Origin: Takakia lepidozioides
Lineage: Eukaryota > Plantae > Bryophyta
Reading direction: 5' to 3'
NCBI GenBank assembly: GCA_030704615.1
Contig: CM060731.1
Coordinates: 80,104,001 to 80,168,000, forward strand
Length of the DNA stretch: 64,000 nucleotides
Part shown: piece after piece, positions 7,790-49,470 of the stretch
Layout: each line of letters opens with the position of its first letter
How positions within the stretch are numbered: position 1 is the stretch's first letter
Translations under genes and position numbers: made by a program
The notes under the pieces: model-generated
The model's database searches: none
Told to the model about the DNA's origin: nothing
What the model saw: only the letters and a program-made list of their open reading frames with translations

Positions 7790-8860
7790 AACTTGTGTCA
7801 TGGAACTGGATGATCGCAGGATATGCAATGCAGGGGCGTGGGATTGAGGCTTTGCGACCTATTCTTGAGCAACTGATGCAACTTTCTTGAGCTTATTCTT
7901 GAGCAAATGATGCAGGAAGGGCGAGGATATGCACAGCGGGGGTGTGGTATAGAGGCTTCGGAGACGTATGAGCAAATAATGCGGGAAAGGGTGAAGCCGG
8001 ACGGGTCACGTGTGTTTGTGTTTGCAATGCGTGTGCAAGCCTGGCAGCCCTAGAGAAGGGTAAAAGGTCCATGGTGCCATTGTCAAATTTGGAATTGTAC
8101 CCGATGTCATTCTGAACAATACCCTCGTGGACATGTATGTCAAATGTGGCAGTATTGAGGATACAAAGGGAGTGTTTGAGAATATGGCTGAACGAAATGT
8201 CGTGTCCTGGAGTGTGTGATGATCGCGGGATATTCCCCAGCATGGATGTAGGATGGAGGCATTGGAGACCTATGAGCAAATGATGCGGGAGGGGGAAAGG
8301 CAGACCTGGTCATGTTCGTTTGTATATGCAATGCTTGTGCGAGCCTGGCAACCCTGGAAAAGGGCAAAGAGGTTCATGGTGACATCATCAGAGCTGGAAT
8401 TGTACCCGACGTCATTCTAAACAATACCCTCGTGGACATGTATGCGAAATGTGGGTGCATCGAGGATGTGAAGGGAGTTTGCAATGGTATGGCTGAACAA
8501 TGCTTGCAGGGTATGCACAGCAAGGCCGCGAGAAGGAGGCTTTGGAGACCTACGATCAAATGATGGCGGAAGGGGTGAAGCCCGACCACATCACGTTTGC
8601 ATTTACAATGCATGTGCAAGCCTGGCAGCCCTGGAAAAGGGCAAAGAGGTCCATGGTGACATTGTCAGAGCTGGAATTGTATCCGATGTCATTCTGAACA
8701 GTACTCTTGTGGACATGTATGCAAAATGTGGGTGCATCGAGGATGCAAAGGGAGTGTTCAACAGTATGGTTGAACGAGATGTGGTGTCGTGGAGTGCTAT
8801 GATTGCAGGATATGCACAGCAAGGGCGCGGGATGGAGGCTCTGAAGACCTATGAGCACCT
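7790..8860 (+). pseudogene. Degenerate PLS-class PPR gene fragments
   Basis: Frameshifted P-L-S motifs such as NTLVDMYAKCGCIEDAKGVF, DVVSWSAMIAGYAQQG and ACASLAALEKGKEVH. Confidence 0.85.
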
Positions 8861-9014
8861 TCTTCAACACATTTCAGCCTGTTTCCCCTGTTATCAGAGT
8901 CGTCCCTAAATTTTTAGGTTGAATTCTACAAGTTAGCTCGTTGGTGCAAAAAGGTGAATGCCTGTTGGAAGCTCAAGTCAGCATAGGAACTTGTGTGATA
9001 AGTAGGGTTAGGGT

Positions 9015-9201
9015 TGTCGTGCGCATACATATCGCTACACAACTACATCGATGTCCAAAACCACACAACACATGTGCACGCCACACACTAGTATATCACT
9101 AGTTCACCACTAGTCCAACCACTAGTCCAACCACTAGGCTACACTAGTCAGTCACTAGGCTGCCACTATACTGCCCATTATGGCAGTCACTAGTCCACAC
9201 A
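9015..9201 (-). repeat. Terminal repeat B (distal copy, B2) of copy 1
   Basis: 187-bp direct repeat of 9532-9718 with 3 substitutions seen; rich in CACTAG units. Confidence 0.92.
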
Positions 9202-9203
9202 AT

Positions 9204-9529
9204 AGATAAAGATGAAGAATACAAGCACAAGCTCATGCGAGCTCACAAAGCTGAAGCATAAACTCATGCATATATAACCTCATCACTCAAATACAAGTCA
9301 AGCCAAGTGCACCCCACGCCATGGGGAATCTACACTACGGCGCCATAGCTAGGCGCGGTGAGGCTCAACTCGAGAAAGATGAGCCTCCCGCGCTTGCCGT
9401 GAAGATAACCACTCCAGGGCCTAAATCTGCCTTGACCCCTGGATTGACACTTGGGCCAATCCCAAATGTCAATATGTAAAAGCTAGCTATTTCCTAGCTA
9501 GTTTCACACTAGTGGTAAATAACTTGACA
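9204..9529 (-). repeat. Terminal repeat A (internal copy, A2) of copy 1
   Basis: Homologous to 30818-31128 and 45116-45429; its first ~50 nt also match 20463-20513. Confidence 0.9.
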
Positions 9530-9531
9530 GC

Positions 9532-9718
9532 TGTCGTGCGCATACATATCGCTACACAACTACATCGCTGTCCAAAACCACACAACACATGTGCACGCCA
9601 CACACTAGTATATCACTAGTTCACCACTAGTCCAACCACTAGTCCAACCACTAGGCTACACTAGTCAGTCACTAGGCTGCCACTATGCTGCCCACTATGG
9701 CAGTCACTAGTCCACACA
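9532..9718 (-). repeat. Terminal repeat B (PPT-proximal copy, B1) of copy 1
   Basis: Follows the polypurine tract; joined to A2 by GACA-GC-TGTC. Confidence 0.92.
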
Positions 9719-9719
9719 A

Positions 9720-9730
9720 TCGCCCCCCTA
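9720..9730 (-). other. Polypurine tract
   Basis: TAGGGGGGCGA lies immediately before TTGTG of B1; the same sequence occurs at 44871-44881 in copy 2. Confidence 0.75.
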
Positions 9731-9785
9731 GCTGGTGCTTAGGTCCCTCTAAGTCCAGGTAGCCACAAGATGTGATAGTGACCAT

Positions 9786-12053
9786 TGTAGTGTGAAAAGA
9801 AAGGGCGTGAATCCCCTTCTGTGCAAGTCTAGTTGTGTTCCTCCCCAGGTTGATTGTAAGGAAGGAAAGGAGCTCTCCTCTCAGGTGATCCAACCAGCAT
9901 CACTCGGTGTGGGTTTCCCTCAGGTCCTTCATGATCAGAGTTCACACAATCCTCATCCACGCCGCAGCGGAAGAGAAGACATGGATGGGGAGTCTGTATT
10001 GTTTTCACCCGTGATTCTACTTTTACACGACATCCTCTCCCTGGTACACTGCACCAGCCATGTTACCATGCTGTCTTCAGTGATGCAACCAGCCCTACGT
10101 CAGTGATGACCACTGCCCTTGTGGGCAGCTCCCTTGGTCAGCAACAAGTGGAATCCCCTTTGTAATAAGATCACGATTTGGAAGGAGGCAACTCAGATCT
10201 GCCATGAGTTGCAGGCCCACCAGTTTGGCCCTTCATGGGTTCATGCTTTCTTTATCTTACCGCCCCAATCATCCATTCCTCTCCATCCCCTCTTGCTGGT
10301 CAGCTCTCTCCCTTATGTTCCTCACTCTTTCCACTGTAGCATGTCTATGATGCAATGTAATGCGCATTCAGCCAAGCATCCAGTGCACCCAGCATTGAAA
10401 TCAACCTTGGTCACACAAGATATAATCAACCCTTTTATCAGTCCCTCTCTTGCCAATGACAGATCCTTCACACTCCCCTTTTCCCAGGTGCAGCCATTTG
10501 CCCAAGACAGCTCTCAACCCTTCTTGTTGGTTTCCAAACAGTTCTATCTAACTCTCACTGGTTTCCTCTACCTACCAAGCTAGTTCCACATTGACTGCAA
10601 TGTGTCAACATCCCAGGCCAGATTGTTTGTACAAGCTCACGACGCTGAAACAAGGAACAAGAATACAACAGCAGCAACCATTCTGTCCCAGCAACGAATC
10701 AACCCTGTTTCCATTCATTTTTCCTACTATACAATGTAACAGCAGGTGCATCCATCTCCAGTCCATCCTGGTTTGAAGTCCAGTGTCTTCATTCCTTTTC
10801 CAAAGCTCTTTTTCTTCCTCACATGTCAGTGTCTCTTACTACATACAAGAGACCGTCCAAAACTTCACAAAGCGATTTCTAAGTCACCAAAAAGAGAGCC
10901 ACTCTTCAAACTTATCTGTCTTATACTCTTTGAGGCGGTGGGTCTGCCTGTCACGAAGGCACCTTGTCCTCTCCCTCGTCAGCCATTTCCGACGTCTCTT
11001 CTTATCGTGATTCCAGTCCTCATTAAGGCATGACGGCTCTGCTTCAGCTGCTGGCACATCCTTGTGTCTGCCAACCTCTACCCTATCCTTCTACATGTGC
11101 ATTCCTTCCCTATGAAGTGATCTGGTCCTACAGCCTTTAAGACAGAGAGCAGATACAAAACTTAATTATAGATAGCTTAAGCGCCATACACACCAGAAGG
11201 CGGCACCGCTTCCTCTTGCACAGAATGCCAAGCCAGATCCCTTAACGTCGCTCTTTAAGGCAAGCTGATTCTTTTACAAAGTGATCCGGTCCTAAAGCTC
11301 AGAAACAGACAGCAGCTACTAGATTTGATCACAGATAACCTGAGGCGCTATACACACCAGCCTATATTTCTCATCTCCCAACACCTGCTGAGCCGCTCCA
11401 TCTCCTCATTAATGTGCTCATCAAGACAATGGCGACAGCAGTGGTGCACCGCCCTTGTCACAAACCTGATCCCTCTGGTTTGATCATTGCTTACGAAGAA
11501 GGCGGCACCGATTCTTCTTGCACAGAAAGCCAAGCAGGAGCTCTTAACATTTCTCTTAAAAGCAAGCTGATACCCTTTGCGTAGGTGGAACTTTCTCAGA
11601 TATCATGTGCTGCCAGCACCACTGCAGCAGCTGCGAAAAGATACACGCACTCTTCTTGCACAGAAAGCCAAGCAGGAGCTCTTAACATTTCTCTTAAAAG
11701 TAAGCTGATACCCTTTGCGTAGGTGGAACTTTCTCAGATATCCTGTGCTGCCAACACCACTGCAGCAGCTGCGAAAAGATACACGCACTCTTCCCCTTCG
11801 AATTTCACATCCTGCTTCTAGGGTTCAACATCATGGATGAAAATCATTCATCCTAGGGATGAAAAAGGCGCATGTCACAACTTAGCCATATTTTGTTCCT
11901 GGCAGATCAATAGCATAGTCTTTCCATGGAATTACCTCAAGTTATGGACAATTCCTCCCCTTCATCAGCACGAAGGGCACTCCCTTTGTAGTAGTGCCGA
12001 AACCTAAGGCCAAACAAAAACTTGAAATTTTTACCCCCTGCACTCACACTACA
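9786..12053. mobile_element. 2.27-kb nested insertion (probable solo LTR or non-autonomous element) in the 3' UTR of copy 1
   Basis: 10-bp inverted ends TGTAGTGTGA...TCACACTACA; TSD CCAT at 9782-9785 and 12054-12057; absent from the homologous site in copy 2 (~44815-44822). Confidence 0.85.
11513..11793. repeat. ~138-bp tandem duplication inside the nested insertion
   Basis: Unit tcttcttgcacagaaagccaagcagg... starts at 11513 and 11651; a diverged partial copy lies near 11200-11280. Confidence 0.8.
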
Positions 12054-12254
12054 CCATAGCTAGTCTCACTAAGTCCTCCACCACTATCCCTACTACACTC
12101 AAACTCAATAGATCAAGAGGCCGGGTGCAAGAGTTGCCCCATCGTTAGTCGCCGTCTTACAACCTGTGAACTTGAGCTTGGGATCTCATGTATTGACTCC
12201 TATGAGCTTGGCCTCCCATGTCTTGTTAGCTGCCTCCAGTCATGTCCACTGCCA

Positions 12255-13540
12255 CTATCCCAAGCAGTGTGGACACAACCAATCTCCGTCAGGAACCTTC
12301 TCAAGAGGTGGTGTCAAGCATCCCATATGCCAACCCCTTGAGCATCGATTACACACCAGCATGGTGGCTGCCCCTTTGGCAAACCCACAGAGCATGCACC
12401 TCAAACCTGCAGGTACCACTGCCAAGTTTGGGTCAACTCTGCCATCGACATTGGGAAGGTGACATGGCGCACAATTACGCACATGGTCTTTCCAAGTCAT
12501 GCCATCCCGACCCTCCAAGATCAGGACTCCTGAGGGCAACACCTCTTGAACCCTCAGAATAACACGCCCTGCAGTAACATCCAGAGTCGTAGGAGCAGTC
12601 TGCTGCAAATAGACATAGTCACCAGGGCTAAACCTCCGAACCCCAGGACGATATCCTCCACCACGTATAGTGGCATACCTCAACGTATCACGGTGTTGTG
12701 CAATGGCAATGTTCTCAAAAGCCATGGGCATGACTTTCTTGAACAACTTTGCACGCTGATCACATACACGTACCCACACGTCCGGATCGTCAAGGTTAAG
12801 GACTTGAGCAGTGTCCCTACGAATGGCTGCAGGCAAATCCGGCTCTCGGCCAAAGAGAAGGAAATATGGTGAGAAGGAGACAAGTGATGCTTGTTTGCTG
12901 AACCTGTAGCCCATGGCTAACCAAGGAACCTGAAGATCCCAATCTCCTAGGTGTTCCTTCTGCAAGCCATACTTGCGCAAACCCCTCTTCACCGTCTGAA
13001 CAACTCTCTCTGCCAAGCCATCGGCCTCAGGATGATCCTGAGAAGTGGTGCGGTGGTCTATCAAGGCTTTATCACACAAAGCCTGAAACTCCCCCAAGAA
13101 CTCTCTCCCTTGGTCCGTGAGTACCTCAGCTGGAGCACCAAATCGGCTAAGCACACGATCAAGAATGCATACGCAGCCCCCTCACTAGCCTTGTCAGGCA
13201 ATGGAACCAACTCAATCCACTTGGAGAAGTGCTCCACCATCACCAACACATATCTGTGGTGGCGCATAGTCAGTGGCAACGGTCCTGCGAAGTCAAGACT
13301 CCACCTGTAGCCCAATCCCATGATTGGTAAAGGATGCAACTGTGGTGTAGGGGCGTTGAATGAAGCACGCACCCTGTCACACACCATGCACCTAGCCAAC
13401 TGTTGCACCTCTGTATGCATACCACGCCACCAATACTGCCCCTGCAGTAAACTGTGAGTGCGTCGCACTCCAAAATGCCCAACTCCTCATGGGCATGCCG
13501 CACTAACCGTGCACGCTGTGTGGGGTGAGGCACAATCCTC
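12255..13540 (-). CDS. Integrase (HHCC Zn-binding, DDE core) with C-terminal PHD finger; frameshifted
   Basis: Motifs HAHEELGH...CMVC, WSLDFAGPLP, VLTDQGREF and DGLAERVVQTVK. PHD finger CMLC...CNRCSRGWHMGCLTPPL...W.CPHC at ~12260-12395. Confidence 0.92.
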
Positions 13541-15300
13541 ACCGACCATCCTCCCATACTCGAAGTAGGTGTATCCCCTCCCACTTGAACCTCTTGGCTC
13601 GTTGCAGGATCCGATCCCTCTCCCTGGCAGTCACAGTGGCTGTCGTGTCTCCCGTGCGGAGGTAGTCCAACACAGCCGAATCCTCATGTATATCTTTGGC
13701 ACCACCTGGCTCATCACTAGCCTCAGGGTCCTCAGACACTCCGTCTACAGTCATCCCTGTTGTAGGTCCAACCTGACCTCCCGATGCCAAGATACACAAA
13801 AATGCAGATGCGTGCCATCCCGGCACCATCTCCTCGTCCGTCTCACCATGCCACCGAGCTCCAGTGTCATCCTGCTGGCTCATGCATGGATTGCGACTCA
13901 ATCCATCCGCATCCCGATTGACCAAACCCGGTCGATGCACAACCTGAAAGTCATACTCCTGGAGTATGAATGCCCACCGTGCAAGCTTCCCCGTAAGCTT
14001 GTCTGACTCCATCAACCACTTGAGTGGCTGGTGATCCGTGACAAGGGTGAAAAGATTGCGGTATAGATAGCACCTGAAGTGTGCCACGGCCCACACTGCA
14101 GCTAAGCACTCTCCCTCATATGAGCTGTACTTAGCCTCTGCAGCGTTGTTCGAGCGGCTAGCATAAGCCACTACGAACTCTCTTCCCTCATCATCCACCT
14201 GTGTGAGCACCGCTCCAAGCCCCAGCATGCTCCAATCCGTATGCAGCTGAAAGGGACGCCCCCTGATAGGTCGTCTCAGGATAGGCGCCGAGGTCAACCT
14301 CGCCTTGAGCTCTTGAAAAGCTCGTTCCTGCTCATCTTCCCACTGCCACTCCTGGTCCACCTTGGTCAGCTTGGTTAGAGCCTTTGCAATGGTACTAAAT
14401 CCCTTGACAAACCGTCTATAATAGTTTGCCAACCCCATGAAAGCTCGAACTCGGCTCACATCCGTGGGGCGTGGAATTTGTGCAATGGCCTCTACCTTAG
14501 TCTGCTGTACCCCCAATCCTCCAGGATATATCATGTGACCCAGATACTCAATCTGGTTGTGGAAAAACTTGCACTTCCCCGGATGCAACTTCAATCCGTG
14601 CGCTCTCAAGCGCTCCAATACCACCTGAAGGTGTCTCTCATGCTCCTCCATCGTAACACTAAAGATGATGATGTCATCTATGTAGCACCGAGCAAAGTCC
14701 ACCCCTGCTAGAATCCTATCCATGACTCTCTGAAACTCTGCAGGAGCATTCTTAAGCCCAAATGGTAAGAACCGCCACTGATATAGGCAATCCTTGCCGT
14801 GCTCATTGATCCCCCAGAATGTCGTCTTCTGCTTGTCCGCCTCCTTGATTGGCAACTGGTGATATCCGGATCGTAAATCCAAAGTGCTAAAGACCTTAGC
14901 ATGCCCGATGGCATCAAAGATCTCCTCTGGTGTTGGCATGGCATACTTATCGGACTTGGTCTGACGATTTACAGGCCGGTAATCACCGCACATACGTCTC
15001 TCCGTCCAATTGCCATAGACATCCTTCTTGGCTGGCATCACTGTGGCTGAAGCATACTCTCCACCAGAGAGCTCCACCAAACCTGCCTCCCAGAGATCTT
15101 GAGTCCTCATCTGAATCAAAGACCTCTCCATGTCACTGTATCTATAGGGTCTCCGAAAGATTGGCGTGTCAGTGGCCAACTCAATACGGATCTCTTGACC
15201 CTTCAGTGCTCCCAAGTCCTTCAAACTGAAGGCAAAGCAATTCCTGTAAGCCCTCAGGAACCGCCGTATACGTCGTCTCTCTCCTCCGGTGACAATGGGT
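13539..15300 (-). CDS. Gypsy reverse transcriptase and RNase H
   Basis: Motifs RMCGDYRPVN, LDLRSGYHQ, LPFGLKNAP and YIDDII; RNase H motifs LHTDWS...ECLAAVWA...TDHQPL. Confidence 0.95.
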
Positions 15301-15370
15301 CCAATGTCAGGCTCCCAACTGCAACCTTAAGTCCAGTGGGCTTAGAGGTAGAGGACGCGTCCAGTGGTTG

Positions 15371-18300
15371 CTATGTTGCAACCTCTTGAGCAGTACTCCC
15401 TGCCTGCTCAGTCAATGACAAGGCCTCATCCTGCCCCATCATCTCATCCTTGAGGACCTCCTCAACCCGAGAAGAATCCCCAACCTCATCCATCACAGCC
15501 GCCTTGGCTGCCAACTCCCTCTGAACCTCGAGCACCTCCCACGTGTGCCATGGATGCATGCACCCCGTGGTCCTCACATGCTCGCCCCCACTCACTGCCT
15601 GTACCGTCTCGGTAGGCAGAGAGACCATCGAGGGAAGTGTACTCCGCACTCTGCGTTGCTCAGCCAGAGCCAAGCTGATAATCCAGGTCAAGCAATTGAG
15701 ATCCATTGCTTGCCCCAACACTTGACGACGTGATGCCTCAGAAAGAGACGACACCGCCGTGGTACCAGTGGTAAAACCCATTGCCCGCTCACGCTCGTCA
15801 GCATTAGGCTCCACTAACTGCTGCAACTGAGCATCCCACAGGAGGCCAGGTCCACTATCCCGGAAAGCATGCGATCCTGGGAAGCTGAGCAGTGTAGGTA
15901 ATGCTGCTCGTGGTTGACCCACCTTGTTGACCACTGCCAAAGGCGAACGGTCATCGTGTCTCACACGCTGAGACTGCCTCCCTGTGTCCAGAATGCTATC
16001 CACTGTGAGATGTGCTGGCCGCTGCACCCCATCAAATGCACGCTTGAGCAGTGCGGGTGGCATCAAGTTAGTCCACCATAGCCGTGGACGATGAGCCCGT
16101 GACCCCACTGTAGCTGCATCTAGCAACACTGCTGACCCAAGCCACGACCGGACTTGATGCACACTGGCCATCACCCTGGCCCGAGAATCGCCCATCAGTG
16201 GCACATTCTCCAAGATGTATGCTGGAGATACAGCTTGATGAAGCTGCAAGTGGCGCAAAACCCGCACCATCTCCCAAAACAGACCCGACCTCGAGTCTCG
16301 CAATCCATTGCCATGCCCGGCTGATGAATGCCCTTGGCAGGGCCAACCTGCCACTACCAGATCAATGGAGCCAACCCGCTCCAAATCCTGCGCCCCCAGC
16401 AACGAAATGTCTGCTGGCAAGGCCTGCTGATATCCACGAATTGCAGACACCGACAACAACTCAGGGTACCGCTGCACCAACTGAGCAACATGGCGAAGTG
16501 AAACGCGTCGTGCAGTCTCATCCCTCTCCACATACAGGTAACGCCGAACTCGTACACCTGCCTGTAACACAGCAGCCAATCCGGTGCTGATCCCGCCAAA
16601 CAAGTCCAGAAGACAAATGCCTTCATCCGGATACTGCCACACAATAGGTGTGGTGTCCAATGGAGACAACTGAGGTGGTCCTGGTGCAATCCCCGCACTC
16701 TCCTCCTCTCCTGACGGTACAAAAGCCTCCACCCAGGCTTGTTGCACCCGTCGATCAGCATCCCGCTGCAAATCCTTGCTCGTGCCCCACAATGGAGTCT
16801 GAGCAACCATGGTAGGCAACTCCGCCATACCATACATGTCATCCTGCTCTCCCGGAGGTGGCACATCCTCTGAATGAGCGTTGCCCTCAAGCAACTCTCT
16901 AGGCCAACTCACTGCCGCTGTGAATGCTGCTAGTGTCGGCATCTTGCCTCGCTGGGCAACCGCAACTCCTCCTATGAACGTCACAGGGAGCTGCACACGC
17001 CGGCCCTCCCCTGACTGCCATGCAGGCCTATAGGAAGCTGACTCCTCCCAAAAATCCAGGGTGAAGCCCATGGGGTACAACACTGCCCCACCAACCAGGA
17101 CATCGTATGAGACCGCGTCTGTCACAATGGCCTTGGCTCGCATCACTGAGCCATCTGTAGGGTGATCCGGCCGTAGTCTGATAGCCAACTCACGCCGTGT
17201 CATGCCCCGAGCCTGCTCCGATCCTCCCAGAGACGTCTGTATCTGGAAAGGACAAGGCTCCATATCCGCCTCCGTGAGGCCCAAGCCTGCAATAGCAGCT
17301 CTGCCCAGCATCAATGGCTGAGCTCCCGAGTCCAACAAGACCCGCAGTGGCCGGTACCTCTTGCCTGCCGGTCCACTCAAACAGAAAATGTCATCCTGGT
17401 TGTCTAACATGACAACTCCAGGTGTCACCATGGCGCGCTCAATGGCTGGCCTAGCTGGCAGCTCCATCAACCTGGCAGCTGCAGCTTGCCATGGCGCCGC
17501 CGTGGCAGTCTTGACCCTCAAATCCGAGGATCCCTCCGGCACTACACCTCCCACTATCTCCGCAGAAGATGAAGTAACCTCCCCACTCTCACAGAGTGTA
17601 GCTGCCAGCCTGAACACCTCAGCTGGTCTTACCCCCGGCGTCGCAATCATGGTAGCCGAGAACAATGGAGCCTGGCACACAGATGTGGCCGCTCCTAGCA
17701 GCACACTAGCTGCCGTAGCCTTGGCAACACTAGGTAGTGGTGCTACCCATGTAGCTCTCCCCAATGGCATAGTAACCTCCGCCTCGGTAACAGTCGGGCG
17801 AGAACTAGGTGCCATGGATGGCGTCGACACTGTCTCCGCCAATGTGAATGACTGAGGAAGCCTAGCCTGACGGCTTGCCTCCCCACGCTGTGGATCCAAC
17901 TCCACCTCTGCACCTCGTGGCTCAGGAACTCGTGCTGCTCCTCGAGTCACGGCTGCAGCAGACTCCACCTGCACTAGTGGTAGTGCTGCTCCACACATGA
18001 ATCCCATGCCTCCCATATCTCCTCCCTCAGGAGCAGGAGGTGGACCATCCGGCCTTAGAGCCGGTACCACCTGAGCTGTAGCCATGGCAGCGAGCCTCTG
18101 CTCTAGCTGCTGAAGCCGGTTGGCCATGCCTTGGTCAACACCCTGACCTCCGCGTCCTTGGCCATGTTGAGCTTGCCCTTGGCCTGCACCTCGTGGCTGG
18201 CCACCTCGTCCTCTTTGGGCTGCTCCACCTCGCCCCCGGCCACCATTGTTCCCTTGGAACTGGCCTGGGCGCAACTCAGGATGCAAACCATAACACTGGG

Positions 18301-19036
18301 CCTCTCCATGCCCGTGCTTGCCACAATGCCCACACTGCAATTGTGCAGGCTGTGCATGTGCCGGCCCTTTGCCTCCCTCTGGGCAATCCTTCTTGACATG
18401 GGGTCCTCCATATGTCCAGCACACCACATCCGCCCGTTGTTGGCCAGTAAATGAAGGGAGAGACCCCTGCATCTGAGGTCCTCTCTGCCCTTCCCTGAGT
18501 TTCACCTGAGCCCCCTTGTTGCCTTGAGCACGTTGAGGTAGTGGTTGGCTAGGAGCACCACTACCCCGTGGTGTCTCCTTAGCAAATCCCACCATGACCA
18601 CTCGTTCCTCCACCATGTTGAGCTCTATCCGCTCTGCCAGCAAAAACACATTTGCTAAGGTGGGTTGGGCCGCTTGTAGGAGAGTTGCATCCCGTACCCT
18701 TCTCCTCAGCTCCTTGTCCAATATCCCATACCAGAATTGGACTGCTTGAGCTTCCGTAACCCCTTGGGTTACCTTTATCAAGCGCCTCATGCGAGTGAAA
18801 ACCTCCCTCAAGCTCTTGGTCGGCTTCCGTTGGAACTCTTGCAAGCTCCGCAACTTCTCTGTCCTCACCCCTTGGTAGTTCCCTCTCAACTCTTCGAAGA
18901 ACTCCACAACAGGGTTGAAGGCAGGCACGGGTACTAGTGCTGGTGCGGTAGTGGCTTGGGTGGACGTCGTAGCTACTGTACCACCAGTCCCACTGCTACT
19001 TGCTGAAGTTGCCGGTGCAGCGGCAGGTGTAGCCAC
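15371..19036 (-). CDS. Gag C-terminal part, zinc knuckles, aspartic protease and C5-cytosine DNA methyltransferase (1221-aa open frame)
   Basis: CCHC knuckle CGHCGKHGHGEAQC; protease LLDSGA at ~17320-17340. MTase at ~15690-16620 has motifs I LDLFGG, IV GWPCQG, VI ENV, VIII AHRPRLWWTN, IX ERERAMGF and X RQVLGQA. Confidence 0.92.
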   Translation of the reverse strand: MATPAAAPATSASSSGTGGTVATTSTQATTAPALVPVPAFNPVVEFFEELRGNYQGVRTEKLRSLQEFQRKPTKSLREVFTRMRRLIKVTQGVTEAQAVQFWYGILDKELRRRVRDATLLQAAQPTLANVFLLAERIELNMVEERVVMVGFAKETPRGSGAPSQPLPQRAQGNKGAQVKLREGQRGPQMQGSLPSFTGQQRADVVCWTYGGPHVKKDCPEGGKGPAHAQPAQLQCGHCGKHGHGEAQCYGLHPELRPGQFQGNNGGRGRGGAAQRGRGGQPRGAGQGQAQHGQGRGGQGVDQGMANRLQQLEQRLAAMATAQVVPALRPDGPPPAPEGGDMGGMGFMCGAALPLVQVESAAAVTRGAARVPEPRGAEVELDPQRGEASRQARLPQSFTLAETVSTPSMAPSSRPTVTEAEVTMPLGRATWVAPLPSVAKATAASVLLGAATSVCQAPLFSATMIATPGVRPAEVFRLAATLCESGEVTSSSAEIVGGVVPEGSSDLRVKTATAAPWQAAAARLMELPARPAIERAMVTPGVVMLDNQDDIFCLSGPAGKRYRPLRVLLDSGAQPLMLGRAAIAGLGLTEADMEPCPFQIQTSLGGSEQARGMTRRELAIRLRPDHPTDGSVMRAKAIVTDAVSYDVLVGGAVLYPMGFTLDFWEESASYRPAWQSGEGRRVQLPVTFIGGVAVAQRGKMPTLAAFTAAVSWPRELLEGNAHSEDVPPPGEQDDMYGMAELPTMVAQTPLWGTSKDLQRDADRRVQQAWVEAFVPSGEEESAGIAPGPPQLSPLDTTPIVWQYPDEGICLLDLFGGISTGLAAVLQAGVRVRRYLYVERDETARRVSLRHVAQLVQRYPELLSVSAIRGYQQALPADISLLGAQDLERVGSIDLVVAGWPCQGHSSAGHGNGLRDSRSGLFWEMVRVLRHLQLHQAVSPAYILENVPLMGDSRARVMASVHQVRSWLGSAVLLDAATVGSRAHRPRLWWTNLMPPALLKRAFDGVQRPAHLTVDSILDTGRQSQRVRHDDRSPLAVVNKVGQPRAALPTLLSFPGSHAFRDSGPGLLWDAQLQQLVEPNADERERAMGFTTGTTAVSSLSEASRRQVLGQAMDLNCLTWIISLALAEQRRVRSTLPSMVSLPTETVQAVSGGEHVRTTGCMHPWHTWEVLEVQRELAAKAAVMDEVGDSSRVEEVLKDEMMGQDEALSLTEQAGSTAQEVAT

Positions 19037-19039
19037 TGC

Positions 19040-19560
19040 CCTCGTGGCTCTAGTGCCCCTAGTGATGGAGACATAGTCGGGTGACTAGTACATCCTCCAC
19101 TCCTCAATCTCAACCTCATGCCATCATCCATAGGCGGCCCCTCAAGGTGCTGAAACAGCCCCTTCCATGCCATGAAAGGCGTAAATAGTTGTGGATTGCG
19201 CATTTGCTGCAAATCACACCAACTATCAAACTCTTGGATAAAATCATCCAACTCGATGGTGTCCACCGCCCCAGAGTACCTTCGTGGCCCCTTGGTAGCT
19301 CCATACATCTCCTCCATTGTGTCCCACAACAATGGCAAAGAAACAACTTGCACCGCCGGTATGAGTCCTCCTGATTCACAATCCGAATCAGAACCTTCCG
19401 TAGAAGACACAGGAGGTGAAGGTGGCCTAAACCTCACACCTCGTCTCGTGTACCCACTAGTATCGCTAGTGCTCGAACCGGCACTGTCCCCAGCAACTAG
19501 TGGCACCTCCATGTTGACACTCAACCGGTCATGAACATGTCCATAACCCCCTCTCCACAA
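19040..19560 (-). pseudogene. Gag N-terminal region (frameshift and stop before the main ORF)
   Basis: PRRYSGAVDTIELDDFIQEFDSWCD...LFQHLEG resembles a retrotransposon capsid N-terminus and directly precedes the 1221-aa ORF. Confidence 0.7.
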
Positions 19561-20339
19561 GGTAACCGGGTAGAGAACCTGTTGCGGCTTATGGTTTGGA
19601 ATACTAAGTTCCTAACATAGCCTACACCTGTACCGGCATCCACCGCAAACACTCCTATGGTTGGCTGGTCATCACCTCCAACCTCACCACAGGAGAAACA
19701 ATGATGGTCTGGCTGGTCATCACCCCAGCCTCACCATCGACAGCATGCTCTAGGACTGGCCGGTGATCAAATCCGGACCAATCACCTATAAAAACAAGCG
19801 CCCACACAAAACTAGCATGGCGCACAGTCAAGCATGCAGGTATGGAGGGGATCCAAACACAAGAAATCATAACGACACTCCTGCAAGGACACCCCAGCCC
19901 AAACCCGGACTGACTCTTGCCTCCACCTACGGAAAGGTCTTGGCCTAATGAGAGGGTGGAAACTACAAGGAAGAGAAGCTAAAGCAATGCCTAACCCCAG
20001 CATGCCCTCATCCCAACACTCTTCCTCTCCTCTCTTCCCTCACTTGCATGACCATGGGAATATCATGAAGATACTCCTCAAACCGCCCTCAGCCAAGACA
20101 CAAACGCCAGCATTGAGGCATACCATGGAAATCTGAAGGCAAGACTTGCCATGGGGAAAAGCAAGACGAGTGGTTGTAGAGTGGACTGGCTTATATGGGA
20201 ACTCACTGGCCGTGTGCTAACACACTACTGGTACGCAATCCATTTGAAGACCCACGGGTTCATAAGAAATGACAAACACGAAAAGTACATATCCAGTTCT
20301 ATACTTGCGGCACGAGACATTCCTGCTGAGAATGTTACT

Positions 20340-20460
20340 CTTCCTTTGCATGAGGGACATGGCGGGCTGCTATACACCACATTGTTATTTTGGGCTTCCA
20401 ATACTGCTCGATATAGTCCACGAGCTTCAAAATTCGGCCTTCAAGACCACATGCCTGTCC
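20340..20460 (-). pseudogene. Possible MULE-type transposase fragment replacing most of the 5' repeat A
   Basis: LVDYIEQYWKPKITMWCIAARHVPHA resembles the Y...W......W....R..PHA segment of plant MULE transposases; the match is short. Confidence 0.35.
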
Positions 20461-20462
20461 TT

Positions 20463-20513
20463 AAGCTAGCTATTTCCTAGCTAGTTTCACACTAGTGGTA
20501 AAATAACTTGACA
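20463..20513 (-). repeat. 5' terminal repeat A (A1) of copy 1; only the first ~50 bp retained
   Basis: Matches ~9480-9529 with a single 1-nt indel. Confidence 0.85.
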
Positions 20514-21620
20514 GGGTGTTTGCTGGAACAGAGAGGCAGAGATAGCTGAAGGAGCAGGGATAGAGAGTGGGTTCAGATTCATCCAAGAGGGCCAGATTTC
20601 AAGCATAGGATTACTTATGATTCCCTGTGGATCAATACCTACAAGAAACCTACATAGGTAGATGGTCAACTGGATGCCGCAGCAGCAGCGGCACAACTGA
20701 TAAAATCAAGCACTGGTAATCAAGGCACCTTCTTCAACACATTTCACCCTGTTTTTCCCTCTTATCAGAATCGGCCCTAAATTTCCTGTTGAATTCTGCA
20801 AGTTAGCTGGTTGAGTGAATGTAGTTTGGAGTGACTTTGACATGATACTGCCACTGTGACAACATGAAAGTATCCAAAAACACGTAACAGAGATGAAAAG
20901 AACTTGTGGAATGAATACTTTTTTGACCCCAGTCAATGGTGGGACACTGAGGCAAAAAGATGAATGCATGTTAGACAAATCCTCCATGGATCAAGGACAA
21001 TGTGGTGAGGGCACCTTCTTCTTTGACCTTTTTCAGTCTGTTTTGCCCTCTCATCAGACTTGGCCCTGAGATGCATATTGAATTCTGTAAGTTAGCTTGT
21101 TGGGTGGATCTGTGGTGGTTTGGAGTGACTTCGACAAGTTACTGCCGATGTGGCCGCAGGAAGTATCCAGAAACAGATAATTGAGATGAGGAGAAGCTTT
21201 GGAATGAACACTCTGACCCCAGTCAATGGTGGGAAAATGGAGACAAAAAGGTGAATGCCTGTTGGACTACAGAGAGAAGCAGATGCAATATAGAATTGGA
21301 ACTACTGGAATAAGTCGGGCTCGGGTGTTTGCTGGAAATTTCACGCCGTTAGTGTCAGCTGCTAGCAGCAAGGCTGAGGATGTATTTATGATTTGTATGC
21401 AGGCAGGGATATATAGCTGAAGGACCAGGGATAGAGGTCCAGATTTATCCAAGAGGGCCGGGTTTCAAACACAAGATTAATTCTGATTTCCTGTGGATCA
21501 ATAGCTACAAATGGGTAGATGGTCAACTGGAAACAGCAGCGGCAACAACACAATTGATAGAACAAGACACTGCTAATGAAGGTACCTTCTTCAACACATT
21601 TCACCCTATTTTTCCCAAGG
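20514..21620. repeat. Dispersed local repeat family of unknown origin (two partial tandem units here)
   Basis: Shared blocks such as cttatcagaatcggccctaaattt and gagtgactttgacatgatactgcc recur at ~8870-9010, 26280-26890, 36980-38110 and 39180-39530. Confidence 0.75.
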
Positions 21621-22105: not shown

Positions 22106-23957
22106 CTATATCGACTCCCTCACCACCTTGGGAGCCATGAAAGTGCCAACCGGATTCTCGGGTGCTTTCCAAAAGCATGCCATAAACAAGAAATGGTCGG
22201 GGATGAAGTCACATGATCTACACGTGATGATGCAACAGATTTTGCCAGTGTGCATTCGGGGTACGATGGCGCCAGGTCCTCGAACAGCCATAATGCGTGT
22301 AAGTCGAGTGTTTAGGAAGATTTGTGCGAAGGTGTGGGATCCGAGGGACATTACATCGTTGCATGAGGATGTGGCTATGACCCTATGTTTGCTGGAGAAA
22401 GAATTCCCTCCATCATTCTTTGACGTCATGACGCACTTGCTAGTGCATCTTGTGTGGGCCCGTAGCCAGCCGGTGGATGTACCCCATGGAGAGGTACATG
22501 AAGGATCTGAAGGGGTATGTACGCAACATGGCACGGCCAGAGGGGAGTATGGCGGAGGGCTACATCCGCGACGAAGCCCTGGGCTTCATGACAGAGTATA
22601 TGTCTTCATTTGATGCAATGCAACGACGGGTGTCGGACGAGAACGAGGAAGAAGGAGTTGTAGGCGAGGTCCTAGAAGGTGGTGGAACAAAGCGTGCCAT
22701 GAGCCCGCGCCTTCGGGATGTGGCACATGATTATGTGCTGAACAACACAACAACCATGACACCATGGAGACAGTGGGTGCCAACTTACATCCCTCCTGTG
22801 CTATTCTTAATGGTCTTTGTATGCTGGAATTACATATATATTGTCACAAGTCATTCCGGCCACTATGGGAGTGGGATCGTGTACTAACAGGGTGCTTCAG
22901 ACGACTACAGAGGGTGTTTCGTAGATCTTGGTTGTTGCTTGCAAGTGATTATGAAGTAGGCTGCATCACTACAGTGTGCTTGAAAGGACACACACTCTGC
23001 ATGTGGCATGCATGTACAGTACGGTGTTGGTCAGGGGGACTGAGTTGCAGCTTCTATTTGGTTTCTGCCAGAAAGTACGCAGCGGAGAAGGTCCGCCTGA
23101 AAACGGAACGGAGTGCATTTGCAAAAGCATGGCGGAGGGGCGGTCGTAGGTGCAGATCCCCGGTGGAGTACCCCACAACAATGGAGGAGCTGCAGCCCTT
23201 TACAGTGTGGGTCAGATCTGCAATTGCAGTGTATGCATCAGAGAACGAGGACCCAGATGAGGGCATGGTGAGTCTGTCATTCCCCCCAGGGCTGATTGCC
23301 ACTTCGTACCGGTCAATGAAAGCATATGGCAATCACTATAGAGTGGACAATGCCAACACCAGCCTCCTGGTGACTTATGACAGCGGAGTGGCATCATTTC
23401 TTGAACAAGAGAGTAGGAGCTATGCACGAGATCGGAATCCAATTTCATGCCATGTGCAATATGTAGGAGTGATCAAAGAGATCCTTAAACTAGACTATGG
23501 TCTTGTGAAGCCAATTCTATTCCGTTGTTCTTGGGTAAAAGCCAATATGGTAGGAGAGAATGCCACCATGAAACGGGATGAGTACGGGTTCCTCCTTGCT
23601 GATTTCAGAAAAATGCTACCACAAGATGAAGAGCCATTCATCTTCCCATCGCAAGTTGAGCAAGTTTTCTTTTCAGATGACACCCATGCGCCGGGATGGA
23701 AGGTGGTTCTTCACAAGGACCCCCGGGCCAAACGAGTCGTGGCCGACGTCCATGATCTGGACCTAGGGGAGAATGCCGACCACGAGGGTCTGAGGGAACC
23801 ACGAAATCTACCAGATACGGCCGAACCAGTCTCTTTGGAAGGAGCAGTTACCTTTAATGAGGAAGACATTCCAGGGTTGGTAATTACCGCAAGGCAAATT
23901 GCAGATGTGGGTAGTGAAGGGGAAGATTATTTGGATACAGATAGTGAGCCCAGCTGA
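22106..23957 (+). mobile_element. CACTA/EnSpm TnpD-like transposase, 5'-truncated (DUF4218 and DUF4216 regions)
   Basis: KSHDLHVMMQQILP, FFDVMTHLLVHL, GPVASRWMYPMERYMKDLKGYVRN..RPEGSMAEGY and YVGVIKEILKLDY...LFRCSWV...EPFIFPSQVEQVFF. Probable intron ~22773-23070 and a frameshift at ~22450. Confidence 0.9.
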
Positions 23958-25460: not shown

Positions 25461-26879
25461 TTGTGAAATGGAAAAGCAGCTACACATCAAATTATTGCGA
25501 TGCCACTCAATGGCACTATGAACGTTTCGAGCATGCTGTCAGAAAGTTAGACGGGCAAAAACCCAATTCAGCAGCCTCACCTTGCGTGGATACTTGGGAA
25601 TTGATGCCAGAAGGGCATGCCCGTATGCGCGCTCCATCGTGCCTCCATCCAGCACATTCTGTAAATGTTGAATGACCAAGACCCCGATGTCACACCGTTC
25701 TGAGAAGCCACTACGCGCGCTCACAGTATACGAAGGCCTTGTTGTCAGGATTTGCATTCCCACGTCCCGCCATGTCCGACGCAGCACTTGCATCCTTGTC
25801 TCTGCCAGGTGGAGGCAACACATATTAAAATATCTATTCCCCCAAGGCCACATTTTGTTTACCTCTTTTTGTGAAAGCCACGTCAGCAAATGTGCTGCCG
25901 AGTCATGGGTGCAATGAATGCGCAGTGGTTCATGGAGTCGTTGAGTCGACTACATATTCACTTTAATGAATAAATATCTTTATTCCATTAATCGAATTAG
26001 GAAATAAAATTTATAGTCGCATGTGCAGTAATTACAACCACTTGTAATTTTGGCTTTTTTTCAAATTTTATGTATTTACGCAATTCGTAAAATAGCCCGG
26101 AATTCTGCTACGACTCCGAAGCCGTTGACCCCACTTCTGTCCGCCGTCTGAAATGCCCCCGTGGGCCCACATTGTCTGTTTCGACTCTCCAGTAGTCCCG
26201 TTTACTACCAAGTGGTTCCCGGAGTGGTCGCGGACATGCAGTCGAATCGGAAAAGACACGAATGCTTCTAGTGTATGTACCATCTACCCATGCAGGTTTC
26301 TTGTAGCTATCCTTCCACAGGGAATCATAAGTAATCTGGAGCTTGAAATTTGGCCCTCTTGGATGACACTCTATCCTTGCTCCTTCAGCTATCCATGCCT
26401 CTGCACAGATCATGCATACATCATTGCATTGATGTTAGCAACTGACAATGGCAGCCTAGATTTGTTCCAGCAAACACCCAACTCAACTTATGACACCAGT
26501 TCATATTCTCAATTGCATCTACCCCTATGTAATCCAAAGGCATTTACCTTCCAAGACGGTTGTCCCACCATTTACTGGGGTCAGAAAAGTATTCATTCCA
26601 CAGCTTCTCCTCTCTGTTACCTATTTCTGGATACTTTCCTATTGTCACTTTGGCAGTATCATGTCAAAGTCACTCCAAACTATCAAAGGTTCACTCAACC
26701 AGCTAACTTGCAGAATTCTTAAAACATGAAAATTTAGGGCGATTCTGATAAGAGGGGAAAACAGAGTGAAATGTGTTGAAGAATGTGCCTTGATTAGCAT
26801 AGCCTGATTTTATCAATTGTGCCGCTGCTGCTGCGGCTTCCAGTTGACCATCTACCCATGCAAGTTTCTTGGAGCTATT

Positions 26880-27600
26880 TTTCCACAGGGAATCACCCCT
26901 TCCCGCATCATTGCTCATAGGTCTCCAAAGCCTCCATCCGCGCCCTTGCTGTGCATATCCTGCACTCATCGCACTCCACGACACCACATCTCGTTCAGCC
27001 ATACTGTCGAACACTTCCTTTGCATCCTCGATGCACCCACATTTGGCATACATGCAGTCCACCAGGGCAGTGTTCAGAATGACATTGGGTACAATTCCAG
27101 ATTTGACGATGTCACTATGGTCCTCTTTGCCCTTTTCAAGAGCTCCCAGGCTTGCACATGCATTACAAACAAATGTGATGTGGTTGGGCTTCACCCCTTC
27201 GCGCAGCAGTTGCTCATAGGTCTCCAAAGCATTCCTACAACACCTATGTTAAATCCTGCCAACATTATATTCAACGTGATCAAAGTTCGTTGAGGCATTC
27301 CGTTGAACACTCGGTGTGCATTCACGATGCTCCTGCACTTAACATACATGTTCACAAGGGTGTTGAGGAGAAAAACACTTGGCGTGAATCCACTTTGGAT
27401 AATGTGAGTGTGCACCTGCTTTCCAGCTTCCAGACCCTTCAATTTGATGCACTTAAGCAAGAGACAGACATACATATCTGAATCTGCTGAAATGCTCCTT
27501 GGTTTAAAGGTTGTAGAGCCTCTTTCAGTCTGCCTGCCTCACAAAGCATCTTCACATGCCCAGAAGAGCCAGAAGAGGCATTATGGCCTCCCTCTCTTGA
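26880..27600 (-). pseudogene. PLS-class PPR gene 5' portion, frameshifted
   Basis: LCEAGRLKEAL; YVCLLLKCIKLKGLEAGKQVHTHIIQSGF..VFLLNTLVNMYVKC; followed by further PLS motifs. Confidence 0.85.
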
Positions 27601-27640
27601 TCCTCTTTTAGAAGCTGTGGTCATGGTTGAGGTGCCTGAT

Positions 27641-29243
27641 TTAAATCAGGGCTGCCAGGCCTGCAATGCACACAAACATGATGTGGCCGGGCTGAACCCC
27701 TTCCCCCATCATTTGCTCATAGGTCTCCAAAGCCTCCATCCCACGTCCCTGCTGTGCATACCCTGCAAGCATCGCACTCCACGACACCACATCTTGTTCA
27801 GCCATAGTGTTGAACACTCCCTTTGCATCCTCGATGCACCCACATTTTGCATACATGTCCACTAGGGTATTGTTCAAAATGACATTTGGTACAATTCCAG
27901 CTCTGAAGGTGTCACCATGGACCTCCTTCCCCTTTTCCAGAGCTGCCAGGGCAGTGTTTCGAATGACATTAGGTACAATTTCAGCTTTGATGATATCCCC
28001 ATGCACCTCTTTGCCCTTCTCCAGGGCTGCCAGGCCTGCAATGCATACAAACATGATGTGGTCAGGCTGAACCCCTTCCCCCATCATTTGCTCATAGGTC
28101 TCCAAAGCCTCCATCCCACGTCCCTGTTGTGTATACCCTGCAAGCATCGCACTCCACGACACCACATCTCGTTCAGCCATGGTGTTAAACACTCCCTTTG
28201 CATCCTCGATGCACCCACATTTTGCATACATGTCCACTAGGGTATTGTTCAAAATGACATTTGGTACAATTCCAGCTCTGAAGATGTCACCATGGACCTC
28301 CTTCCCCTTTTCCAGAGCTGCCAGGGCAGTGTTTCGAATGACATTAGGTACAATTCCAGCTTTGATGATATCCCCATGCACCTCTTTGCCCTTCTCCAGG
28401 GCTGCCAGGCCTGCAATGCATACAAACATGATGTGGCCAGGCTGAACCCCTTCCCCCATCATTTGCTCATAGGTCTCCAAAGCCTCCATCCCACGTCCCT
28501 GTTGTGTATACCCTTCAAGCATCGCACTCCACGACACCACATCTCGTTCAGCCATGGTGTTAAACACTCCCTTTGCATCCTCGATGCACCCACATTTTGC
28601 ATACATGTCCACTAGGGTATTGTTCAAAATGACATTTGGTACAATTCTAGCTCTGAAGATGTCACCACGGACCTCCTTCCCCTTTTCTAGAGCTGTCAAG
28701 GCAGTGTTTAGAATGACATTTGGTACAATTCCAGCTCTGAAGGTGTCACCATGGACCTCCTTCCCCTTTTCCAGAGCTGCCAGGGCAGTGTTTCGAATGA
28801 CATTAGGTACAATTTCAGCTTTGATGATATCCCTTCTCCAGGGCTGCCAGGCCTGCAATGCATACAAACATGATGTGGCCGGGCTGAACCACTTCCCCCA
28901 TCATTTCCTCATAGGTCTCCAAAGCCTCCATCCCACGTCCCTGTTGTGTATACCCTGCAAGCATCGCACTCCACGACACCACATCTCGTTCAGCCATAGT
29001 GTTGAACACTCCCTTTGCATCCTCGATGCACCCACATTTTGCATACATGTCCACTAGGGTATTGTTCAAAATGACATTTGGTACAATTCCAGCTCTAAAG
29101 GTGTCACCATGGACCTCCTTCCCCTTTTCCAGAGCTGCCAGGGCAGTGTTTCGAATGACATTAGGTACAATATCCCCATGCACCTCTTTGCCCTTCTCAA
29201 GGGCTGCCAGGCTTGCACAAGCATTGCAATGCACACAAACATG
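27641..29243 (-). pseudogene. Tandem array of near-identical PLS-PPR modules (~375-bp unit); 408-aa ORF at 27641-28867
   Basis: Unit marker gggctgccaggcctgcaatgc occurs at ~27649, 28024, 28399 and 28841. Confidence 0.88.
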
Positions 29244-36602: not shown

Positions 36603-36821
36603 ACGGTAGTCATGGTTTTCCTGACTTTGACCATGACTTCCCTATATTTTTGGACCAAATGGGGCTTCACGGAGTCGTTGAAATAACTGCGTGGCTCCGT
36701 AATCCTCTGGGTGACTACGTTGGTAAACTTCGTCATGACTACATCATGTCAATTGACACACGTCGCTGTGGGGGGGGGTTGGGGATTTAATTTATTGTTA
36801 TTATAATTACTATAATAATAA

Positions 36822-45659: not shown

Positions 45660-46037
45660 CATCAGTCTGTCTTGCTCATTTCATGCATTATGTGTGTATT
45701 GTTCATTTCATTTACCGACTCATTTGTGTCTCTACTGTTAGTCTGACCTATTGTAATGTACATAAAGAAGATTATACAAATCTCCTTCTACCACCCAATT
45801 TTCTTTTCATTTATATGGTAGGCTAAATTCAAGCTCAAACACTATTATGGCATGATGATCGCTTTGGGTTCCCTACTCATGTGTGTGATATTTTTTCTGC
45901 CAATGAACAAAATATGGACATGGTGTCAATACTGTAAAAGAGAGGAAGATTTTTGTCGAAGCAAACGTAACTTATGCTATCACTCCATCACCAGGAGCTA
46001 CCGTTTGGAAGGTGGACATTTTCATCTTTTAACCTGT

Positions 46038-49420: not shown

Positions 49421-49470
49421 ATAAACTGGAGGGATCAGGAGAGTAATTTTACCATGGTTCCAGAGGGACA

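Follow-up and report, generated by a model that had tools for sequence, protein, structure and literature searches.

The 64,000-nucleotide stretch of the bryophyte Takakia lepidozioides analyzed here (assembly GCA_030704615.1, contig CM060731.1, positions 80,104,001 to 80,168,000; called the window and numbered from its first letter) harbors copies of a Ty3/Gypsy-type long terminal repeat (LTR) retrotransposon that carries a DNMT3-type cytosine methyltransferase. In copy 1 a minus-strand frame without stop codon extends from 19084 to 15374 (1237 codons) and encodes Gag, zinc knuckles, protease and methyltransferase. Judged from its reading frame, the methyltransferase belongs to this first open reading frame (ORF1; Gag-protease-methyltransferase) and not to Pol. 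The coding features of copy 1 are:

9015-20513, minus strand: whole copy 1, with ends TGTC...GACA and the 4-bp target duplication ACCC at 20517-20514 and 9014-9011
19085-19317, minus strand: 5' part of gag in a different frame, with the probable start MEEMYGATKGP and a frame break near 19.1 kb
15371-19084, minus strand: ORF1 with Gag, two zinc knuckles, protease, methyltransferase, a tail of 96 amino acids (aa) and TAG
18421-18383 and 18334-18293, minus strand: the two zinc knuckles within ORF1
16994-17425, minus strand: aspartic protease, LLDSGA at 17338-17321 (Asp_protease_2 E 0.004, under the curated cut-off)
15662-16669, minus strand: DNMT3-like C5 cytosine methyltransferase, motifs I-X in normal order
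15365-15373, minus strand: ORF1 stop TAG followed by CAA CCA, a UAG-CAR-YYA readthrough context
13890-15317, minus strand: reverse transcriptase (YIDD at 14684) and RNase H
12258-13480, minus strand: DDE integrase with frame breaks at 13.1-13.6 kb and a C-terminal PHD finger at 12398-12264

The element shows the Ty3/Gypsy order Gag, protease, reverse transcriptase, RNase H and integrase, the latter of the DDE type, and the identity of its parts is nearly certain. The Gag region of ORF1 gave a weak Pfam match (E 0.026); matches for Gag, protease and rve lie under curated cut-offs in the window copy, and rve exceeds its cut-off in the related proteins P0187 and P0174. The predicted Gag start resembles the N-termini of the Marchantia proteins P0125 and P0126. 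Copy 1 is non-functional in its present state, with damage in the 5' gag part (about 19.1 kb), near 15317, between RNase H and integrase (13.1-13.6 kb) and in the 5' repeat. Its reverse transcriptase sits in another frame than ORF1 through the break near 15317, which is not present in copy 2.

The initial annotation, made from the sequence alone, had placed an uninterrupted C5 methyltransferase domain between protease and reverse transcriptase at 15690-16620. A stop-free domain is indeed located there, its true extent being slightly wider, about 16669-15662. The accompanying statement that it is encoded in frame within the Gypsy polyprotein applies to Gag and protease but not to reverse transcriptase, as a TAG at 15373-15371 intervenes. 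The proposed profile search returned PF00145 (E 1.4e-12), and every motif that had been named is present: LDLFGGISTG (16609), GWPCQG (16348), ILENV (16216), AHRPRLWWTN (16096), ERERAMGF (15796) and RQVLGQA (15727), so that motifs I (FxG), IV (PC), VI (ENV), VIII, IX and X follow each other in non-permuted order. A sequence search of the PDB ranked DNMT3A first (E 1e-11) and DNMT3B next, followed by DRM (4e-6) and M.HhaI (5e-4). With a family profile of 47 homologues the values were 1e-24 for DNMT3A, 3e-12 for DRM and 4e-7 for M.HhaI, and DNMT2 ranked far behind DNMT3. The structural model of the domain reached a predicted local distance difference test score of 91.7; the Foldseek rows listed for it were DNMT3 throughout, and a second aligner gave Z 27.9 for DNMT3A/B (root-mean-square deviation 2.6 over 272-278 aligned residues) compared to 23.9 (4dkj) and 22.8 (M.HhaI) for bacterial enzymes. 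Identity to vertebrate DNMT3 structures is 19-26%. DRM was rejected as an identity, since motif I stands ahead of IV, VI and VIII-X, i.e. without circular permutation; DRM sequence matches were confined to residues 23-148 of the domain. The domain is of the DNMT3 type by sequence and fold, and the preference for DNMT3 over DRM in the initial annotation is shared by PDB search, family profile, Foldseek and the second fold aligner.

Relatives of the element were collected by protein searches, which yielded 222 proteins of similar length (120 of them listed) and 71 longer ones, and by a metagenome scan in which 159 of 295 stretches were confirmed and 80 loci kept, all 80 chosen via the methyltransferase domain. 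Those metagenome loci that were placed in the domain tree mostly cluster with Sphagnum proteins and are termed the moss-like family below. Both the end of the domain and the start of reverse transcriptase are included in 55 of 82 sequences, and these junctions were compared.

In copy 1, ORF1 ends 96 codons past the methyltransferase at TAG CAA CCA. The same TAG CAA CCA occurs in copy 2 (41691), where it is in frame with reverse transcriptase. TAG or TAA is found at one aligned column in 48 of the 55 junctions (42 of 48 distinct ones), and CAA follows the stop directly in 47 of 48. This column is kept although the linker protein diverges strongly between the window and the moss-like family. The linker keeps the frame in 34 cases, in 20 of which this stop is the sole one. 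Among the seven other junctions, L057 (TAA-CAA-TCA) and L076 (TAA-CAA-TTA), which represent a third subfamily, have the stop at another column, L065 and L070 carry TAG-CAA near reverse transcriptase, L044 has a changed codon, and L053 and L054 have none. ORF1-like proteins in databases likewise end 59-183 aa past the domain (79 aa in Marchantia P0125 and P0126, 81 aa in Calypogeia P0124). UAG-CAR-YYA is described as the tobamovirus-type (type I) readthrough signal, which is also functional with UAA (PMC3542737); the window copies correspond exactly to this consensus, whereas most moss-like copies have CAA-CCC. As ORF1 ends before reverse transcriptase at a conserved stop, synthesis of the enzyme probably reaches the level of Gag. 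It would thus be produced with every Gag, and reverse transcriptase and integrase only by readthrough, which at UAG-CAA-CCA is quite likely. A stop behind the enzyme implies selection on enzyme amount.

Several observations weigh against this interpretation. The strict CAR-YYA context is restricted to the two window copies, L057 and L076. CAA-CCC followed by ATG is present in 43 of 55 junctions, which deviate from the consensus at base six and would permit reinitiation, and 7 of 55 lack a stop at the aligned column. No stable RNA structure was found after the stop (z 0.29 and -0.97). Moreover, the domain continues without a stop into reverse transcriptase in Klebsormidium P0187 and in ten further proteins that are algal-type or unnamed, and in a clade of 16 rows it lies either behind RNase H and ahead of integrase or simply before integrase; an amount at Gag level is thus no general requirement. 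Reverse transcriptase and integrase might be supplied by reinitiation, splicing or a second promoter, with the enzyme still acting on complementary DNA (cDNA). The moss-like family would allow reinitiation with its ATG three codons from the stop, and five gene models of Marchantia and Sphagnum (P0128, P0131, P0133, P0137, P0163) join both frames. Yet neither window copy contains an ATG from the stop to the start of reverse transcriptase, the joined models are probably predictions on decayed copies, and the frame is kept across the stop with CAA as the next codon in 47 of 48 junctions. These routes are distinctly unlikely as replacements for readthrough.

The methyltransferase is a trait of the family, as the initial annotation had proposed from its recurrence in copy 2. 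The 80 metagenome loci repeat the order Gag, protease, methyltransferase, reverse transcriptase, RNase H, integrase and PHD finger as far as their contigs extend, and the position of the methyltransferase is the same in at least 53 of 80, both domains being within reach. In copy 2 the 3' part of the domain is represented by 80 codons at 41174-41413 that are 85% identical and contain one stop. Named homologues from the protein searches belong to Marchantia, Calypogeia, Riccia, Sphagnum, Klebsormidium and Monoraphidium; element-borne homologues of liverworts, peat moss and algae are 37-77% identical to the window domain, and Klebsormidium KFL_009030040 (P0187), with the order protease, methyltransferase, reverse transcriptase, RNase H and integrase, is 46% identical over the domain. 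Selection was assessed with copy 1 as reference and 42 loci in which at least 90% of the domain was covered in one match. The median proportions of nonsynonymous and synonymous differences were 0.195 and 0.717, and the resulting dN/dS of 0.097 (defined in 38 of 42) is rough, given saturation at synonymous positions and loci that are not independent, most of them old copies from a small number of hosts. For reverse transcriptase 0.077 was obtained (24 of 30 defined). Copies 1 and 2 differ with a dN/dS of about 0.33 over 80 codons of the domain and 0.23-0.37 in reverse transcriptase. The value between families lies below a Ka/Ks of 0.2, so the neutral evolution that would have spoken against the initial annotation is not borne out, and the domain appears, on this rough estimate, to be under purifying selection comparable to that on reverse transcriptase. 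Catalytic residues are kept in nearly all loci (Cys, E and N in 40 of 42 each, V in 41 of 42), and the catalytic Cys, ENV and the S-adenosylmethionine (SAM)-binding FGG are among the best-conserved columns. Four of 43 full-length domains are free of stops, copy 1 being one of them.

A quick tree of 86 domains (midpoint root, long-branch warnings; most short matches and all rows with fewer than 240 matched residues, Monoraphidium included, were left out) placed the element-borne stop-ended proteins in one clade of 56 rows (SH-aLRT 98), which includes the five bryophyte gene models joined to reverse transcriptase. The window domain branches outside the group of Calypogeia, Sphagnum and Marchantia (support 98), and by synonymous sites of the element, too, the host is not close to Sphagnum or Marchantia. 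P0187 falls into a separate clade (support 100) that is mostly open into reverse transcriptase, and nearly all members of the 16-row clade (support 100) have the domain behind RNase H or before integrase. A reverse transcriptase tree of 23 rows contains the same main groups, which indicates that domain and element descended together. Within the polyprotein, the domain, going by its positions in these clades, has changed place at least once. A Monoraphidium fragment with the order reverse transcriptase, RNase H, methyltransferase suggests a chlorophyte branch. The window element is related to that of Klebsormidium and does not stem from an independent event in land plants. A single element's recent and neutral acquisition of an exon from host DNMT3, one of the outcomes that were to refute the initial annotation, agrees with DNMT3 being the best solved relatives. 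It is opposed by the constant position in at least 53 of 80 loci, the dN/dS near 0.1, the higher identity to liverwort, peat moss and algal element homologues than to vertebrate DNMT3 (37-77% versus 19-26%) and the main clades shared by both trees. As far as can be told from a tree that took in element-borne homologues, with host DNMT3 and a bacterial outgroup not among its rows, such a capture is not seen, the domain nesting among retroelement-borne homologues down to algal ones, and it is extremely improbable. Within this scope, and with loci chosen via the domain, none of the three outcomes named as refuting in the initial annotation (absence from most family members, neutral evolution, recent capture) was observed.

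Among the relatives, P0165, P0169, P0172-P0175, P0178, P0181, P0182 and P0191 carry the methyltransferase behind RNase H and ahead of integrase and extend far past the PHD finger; this clade has Monoraphidium as its one named member. P0023, with a 53%-identical domain, is labelled as a bacterial metagenome-assembled genome and groups with a eukaryotic element clade; the label likely reflects contamination. L057, L060, L068 and L072 contain a second copy of protease and methyltransferase start, inverted inside reverse transcriptase-RNase H, which is a nested or rearranged insertion. In two runs, possibly of the source sample, 87,672 and 99,184 contigs fell on 8.7 kb of the family; the element family is abundant in the organism of the window. 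A run that is presumably of RNA also has contigs on the family. Contig depth over the domain is about in the range of reverse transcriptase and integrase, a measure that cannot rank the parts, and 0 of 15 joints listed (there are 130 more) skip the domain. A search of viral contigs gave 15 pattern matches, none of which was a relative of the family.

The ends of the element were analyzed as well. Copy 1 is arranged as A-coding-B1-A2-B2, i.e. with split repeats of the type A-coding-B-A-B:

20463-20513, minus strand: remnant of 5' repeat A; copy 1 lacks the primer site and the remainder of A
9723-9729, minus strand: polypurine-tract-like AGGGGGG just before B1
9532-9720, minus strand: repeat B1
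9526-9535, minus strand: palindromic B/A junction GACAGCTGTC (CA-GC-TG)
9204-9529, minus strand: repeat A2, LTR-like, beginning with TG
9015-9203, minus strand: repeat B2, with 3 differences from B1 in 189 bp

The TG..CA ends and the target duplication are those of Gypsy elements (4-6 bp), whereas two equal terminal LTRs are absent, the ends being A and B. The low number of differences between B1 and B2 (3 in 189 sites) indicates that the insertion of copy 1 is fairly young. Family contigs continue past the A remnant with the rest of A. Complete split repeats are present in copy 1, copy 2, L049 and L055/L059 and partial ones in L003, L009, L016 and L051; 4-bp duplications flank copy 1, copy 2, L049, L055/L059, L017, L035 and L071. 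A purine tract with GGGGG precedes B1 in 14 of 17 loci with B1 (one change in L043 and L048, deleted in L026). Like the purine tract, the palindrome GACA-GC-TGTC at the B/A junction is common to the window and moss-like families, as is the stretch just ahead of the B end, but not the rest of B. Directly behind the 5' A, 12 of 17 loci with a 5' A end carry CTCAAAGAA, the complement of a stretch that lies in A some 25 nt past a TATA-like box. In the window family the stretch in A and its complement behind the 5' A form another pair, of 16 nt (fold z -5.6), and no tRNA gene was found in the 64,000-nt window. By analogy with the Tf1 layout, the complement behind the 5' A may be a primer site of the self-priming type.

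With these two primers ordinary reverse transcription would give a linear B-A-coding-B-A molecule. Joining of its ends and opening of the circle at the left B/A palindrome would lead to exactly A-coding-B-A-B with TG and CA ends. The end anatomy thus suggests integration from a circle, which appears rather probable. The circle step is itself a deduction from this anatomy, and two further points count against it. A short A-coding-B form with its own duplications (L017, L035, L071) does not provide independent support for a circle, because L035 (short) and L051 (long) share their right flank and recombination or assembly collapse can explain the short form; it was dropped as evidence for a one-repeat circle. 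Furthermore, the A2/B2 junction is precise in most copies (L009, L016, L051, L055/L059 and copy 2), and L049 and copy 1 contain extra bases.

Taken together, we favor a life cycle in which the enzyme is made at Gag level ahead of a leaky stop and methylates new double-stranded cDNA before integration, with a probability of about 60%. Gag-protease-methyltransferase would build the particle, so that the enzyme is packed in Gag-like amounts, and a minority of full-length polyprotein arising by readthrough at UAG-CAA-CCA would bring reverse transcriptase and integrase. After release of the methyltransferase by the protease, self-primed reverse transcription would start just behind the 5' A and the plus strand at the purine tract before B. 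The ends of the linear cDNA (B-A-coding-B-A) would join into a circle or a head-to-tail dimer, and the DDE integrase would cut the palindromic B/A site to yield the genomic A-coding-B-A-B form. The enzyme would methylate the naked cDNA or circle, and the new copy would arrive premethylated, which may mark it as self or pre-silence it. The predicted methyltransferase is likely to be catalytically active, and cDNA is somewhat favored as its main substrate. In yeast, Dnmt3 domains from DIRS elements carry out de novo CG methylation, and cDNA has been proposed as their substrate (PMC5890265). Against this stands the KnitGypsy-Dnmt3 domain of Klebsormidium, for which no methylation was obtained in yeast, a result its authors call inconclusive (PMC5890265). 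Also, the observed/expected ratio of CpG in the element (0.44-0.61) does not fall below that of the window as a whole (0.51), and the C-to-T differences between copies 1 and 2 (CG 51/475, CHG 52/658, CHH 109/2554) follow the pattern that host methylation would give; there is therefore no footprint of self-methylation.

Two other functions were considered. An active enzyme could work mainly in the nucleus, methylating chromosomal DNA (own copies, insertion site, host genes) and changing host silencing. Placement in ORF1 would make the enzyme more plentiful than one cDNA molecule per particle requires, a chromatin reader (the PHD finger) is part of the integrase, and stray methylation of the host genome is discussed by de Mendoza et al. 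(PMC5890265). Nevertheless, ORF1 contains no domain that would target the enzyme, a cis effect is what selection favors in a selfish element, and other clades tie the domain to Pol beside reverse transcriptase or integrase, which travel with the cDNA; a mainly nuclear role is therefore unlikely. The domain could also be kept for a non-catalytic role such as nucleic-acid binding, e.g. shielding of the CpG-rich B end, or act on RNA. The inactivity of KnitGypsy-Dnmt3 in yeast (PMC5890265), the missing compositional footprint and the shared stretch just before the B end fit such a role, but the catalytic Cys, ENV and SAM-binding FGG are among the best-kept columns and fold and sequence are those of DNMT3, with DNMT2 far behind, which leaves it only a slight chance. 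Methylation of cDNA by a Gag-level enzyme remains the preferred explanation. Its widest version, an old, bryophyte-wide Gypsy clade of the green lineage that combines self-priming, circle integration, a capsid-level DNMT3, premethylated copies, an enzyme moved once and a contribution to methylomes, is possible but doubtful as a whole.

The remainder of the window contains further parts of the element and other features:

41175-45659, plus strand: 3' part of copy 2 with methyltransferase end, TAG CAA CCA (41691), reverse transcriptase, RNase H, integrase and PHD finger
44881-45113, 45116-45428 and 45429-45659, plus strand: repeats B1, A2 and B2 of copy 2
31128-30818, minus strand: lone 5' repeat A, with 16 nt directly behind it (30817-30802) that are exactly complementary to an internal stretch of A
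55564-56413, minus strand: copy 3 fragment with integrase end, part of the PHD finger and part of B
9786-12053, unstranded: nested 2.27-kb insertion in the 3' untranslated part of copy 1, with 10-bp inverted ends and the 4-bp duplication ATGG; none in copy 2

Copy 2 has many stops and frame breaks. The outer flank of the lone A, CATC, equals the right flank of copy 2, and the lone A (31128-30802) is likely the displaced 5' end of that copy. The 5' repeat and the 3' body (41175-45659) share one target duplication and lie 10 kb apart on opposite strands, which suggests separation by a local inversion or rearrangement. Pieces of the 5' untranslated region of the element are located behind copy 2 in swapped order (46037-46421, 46691-46738). 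The nested insertion in copy 1 (12053-9786) has TG..CA ends, an internal 138-bp tandem repeat and no ORF longer than 157 aa, and is perhaps a solo LTR or a non-autonomous element. Decayed pentatricopeptide repeat (PPR) gene fragments, which we take to be of the PLS type, occur in tandem and inverted at 7900-8900, 26900-29250, 38300-39130 and 48900-52540, with a recurring non-coding repeat among them (20530-21620, 26270-26900, 37170-38100, 39170-39520). Amid this debris lies a DUF2921 (E3-ligase-associated) gene fragment (49447-50070, plus strand). Proteins of Sphagnum, Pteridium and Adiantum all match it at 51% identity and named angiosperm proteins at 42-48%, and its 21 matches or their clusters carry land-plant names only. 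Together with the PPR arrays, this fragment points to a land plant as host. A DUF4216 ORF (22731-23957, plus strand) presumably derives from a CACTA-type transposon. The C-terminal part of a reverse transcriptase like that of long interspersed nuclear elements (57893-58900, minus strand) and a NIF-phosphatase-like ORF (35973-36641, minus strand) were also found.

These results extend retrotransposon-borne DNMT3 from one alga to land plants, including the model liverwort Marchantia. The Marchantia models P0125, P0126, P0128, P0155 and others are element ORF1s (Mp4g09160, Mp8g17980, Mp6g11220, Mp8g15430), and the domain of P0125 looks complete. As several of these loci bear the annotation of hypothetical host genes, numbers of methyltransferases counted in plants could be distorted. 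With its stop-free domain, copy 1 offers a direct route to the targets of element-borne DNA methyltransferases, a question left open in PMC5890265. The end anatomy provides a testable answer to DIRS-like split repeats in an element with DDE integrase and links methyltransferase carriage to circular intermediates. If the proposed life cycle is true, such elements may add to bryophyte methylomes.

Known systems share single features with the window element. SymbioDIRS-Dnmt3 combines an active Dnmt3 domain with repeats of the A-coding-B-A-B type (PMC5890265). DIRS elements use a tyrosine recombinase; membership in DIRS/Ngaro/PAT was rejected because the window element has an rve-type integrase with PHD finger instead, and 4-bp duplications. 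Troyka, raised by the repeat pattern, has CG..CG ends and 3-bp duplications and is described from animals only (PMC12440569); it was rejected as well, given TG..CA ends and a 4-bp duplication in the window element. Tf1/Tj1 likewise have a primer site complementary to a stretch in the 5' repeat, and Tj1 a stop between gag and pol, but they possess ordinary paired LTRs and neither methyltransferase nor B repeats (PMC4600332). The catalytic domain of vertebrate DNMT3A/3B has the same fold and motif order, whereas the window domain has a longer target-recognition region and no PWWP or ADD; host DNMT3 of bryophytes is covered in PMC10952607 and bioRxiv 10.1101/2021.02.12.428880. EpiLTR/DAM-LTR are also retroelements with a DNA methyltransferase, the EpiLTR enzymes being reported as sister to DNMT4 (bioRxiv 10.64898/2026.05.21.726589). 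That preprint devotes one clause to 'streptophytes (Gypsy-DNMT3)', with no land-plant data in the passages covered, and its tree may include land-plant rows. The REXdb paper on plant lineages (Phygy, Selgy, Tcn1, Chlamyvir) contains no mention of PHD, methyltransferase, methylase or Marchantia (PMC6317226). The family was not found in land plants in the literature searched, which lay outside most subscription papers, Repbase, figures and bioRxiv supplements.

Dinoflagellates and Klebsormidium are known to harbor retrotransposon-borne DNMT3 (PMC5890265), and two later papers name 'streptophytes' for it in a clause. KnitGypsy-Dnmt3 of Klebsormidium nitens is the closest comparison: both elements are Gypsy elements with an intronless, non-rearranged Dnmt3-type domain, DIRS-like split repeats and purifying selection (PMC5890265). 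KnitGypsy-Dnmt3 was called an acquisition in the K. nitens lineage, in a study whose species table does not list Marchantia, Sphagnum or Monoraphidium (PMC5890265). Its domain is placed in the Pol ORF (PMC5890265), whereas that of the window element lies in ORF1 before a conserved stop. The window element also differs by its land-plant host and its separate clade in both trees, and the PHD finger, target duplication, self-priming site and B/A palindrome are not mentioned for KnitGypsy-Dnmt3 in the portions of PMC5890265 covered. New compared to these systems are a further host with a stop-free domain, a conserved stop that ties the enzyme to Gag, a second position of the domain and the anatomy of the ends.

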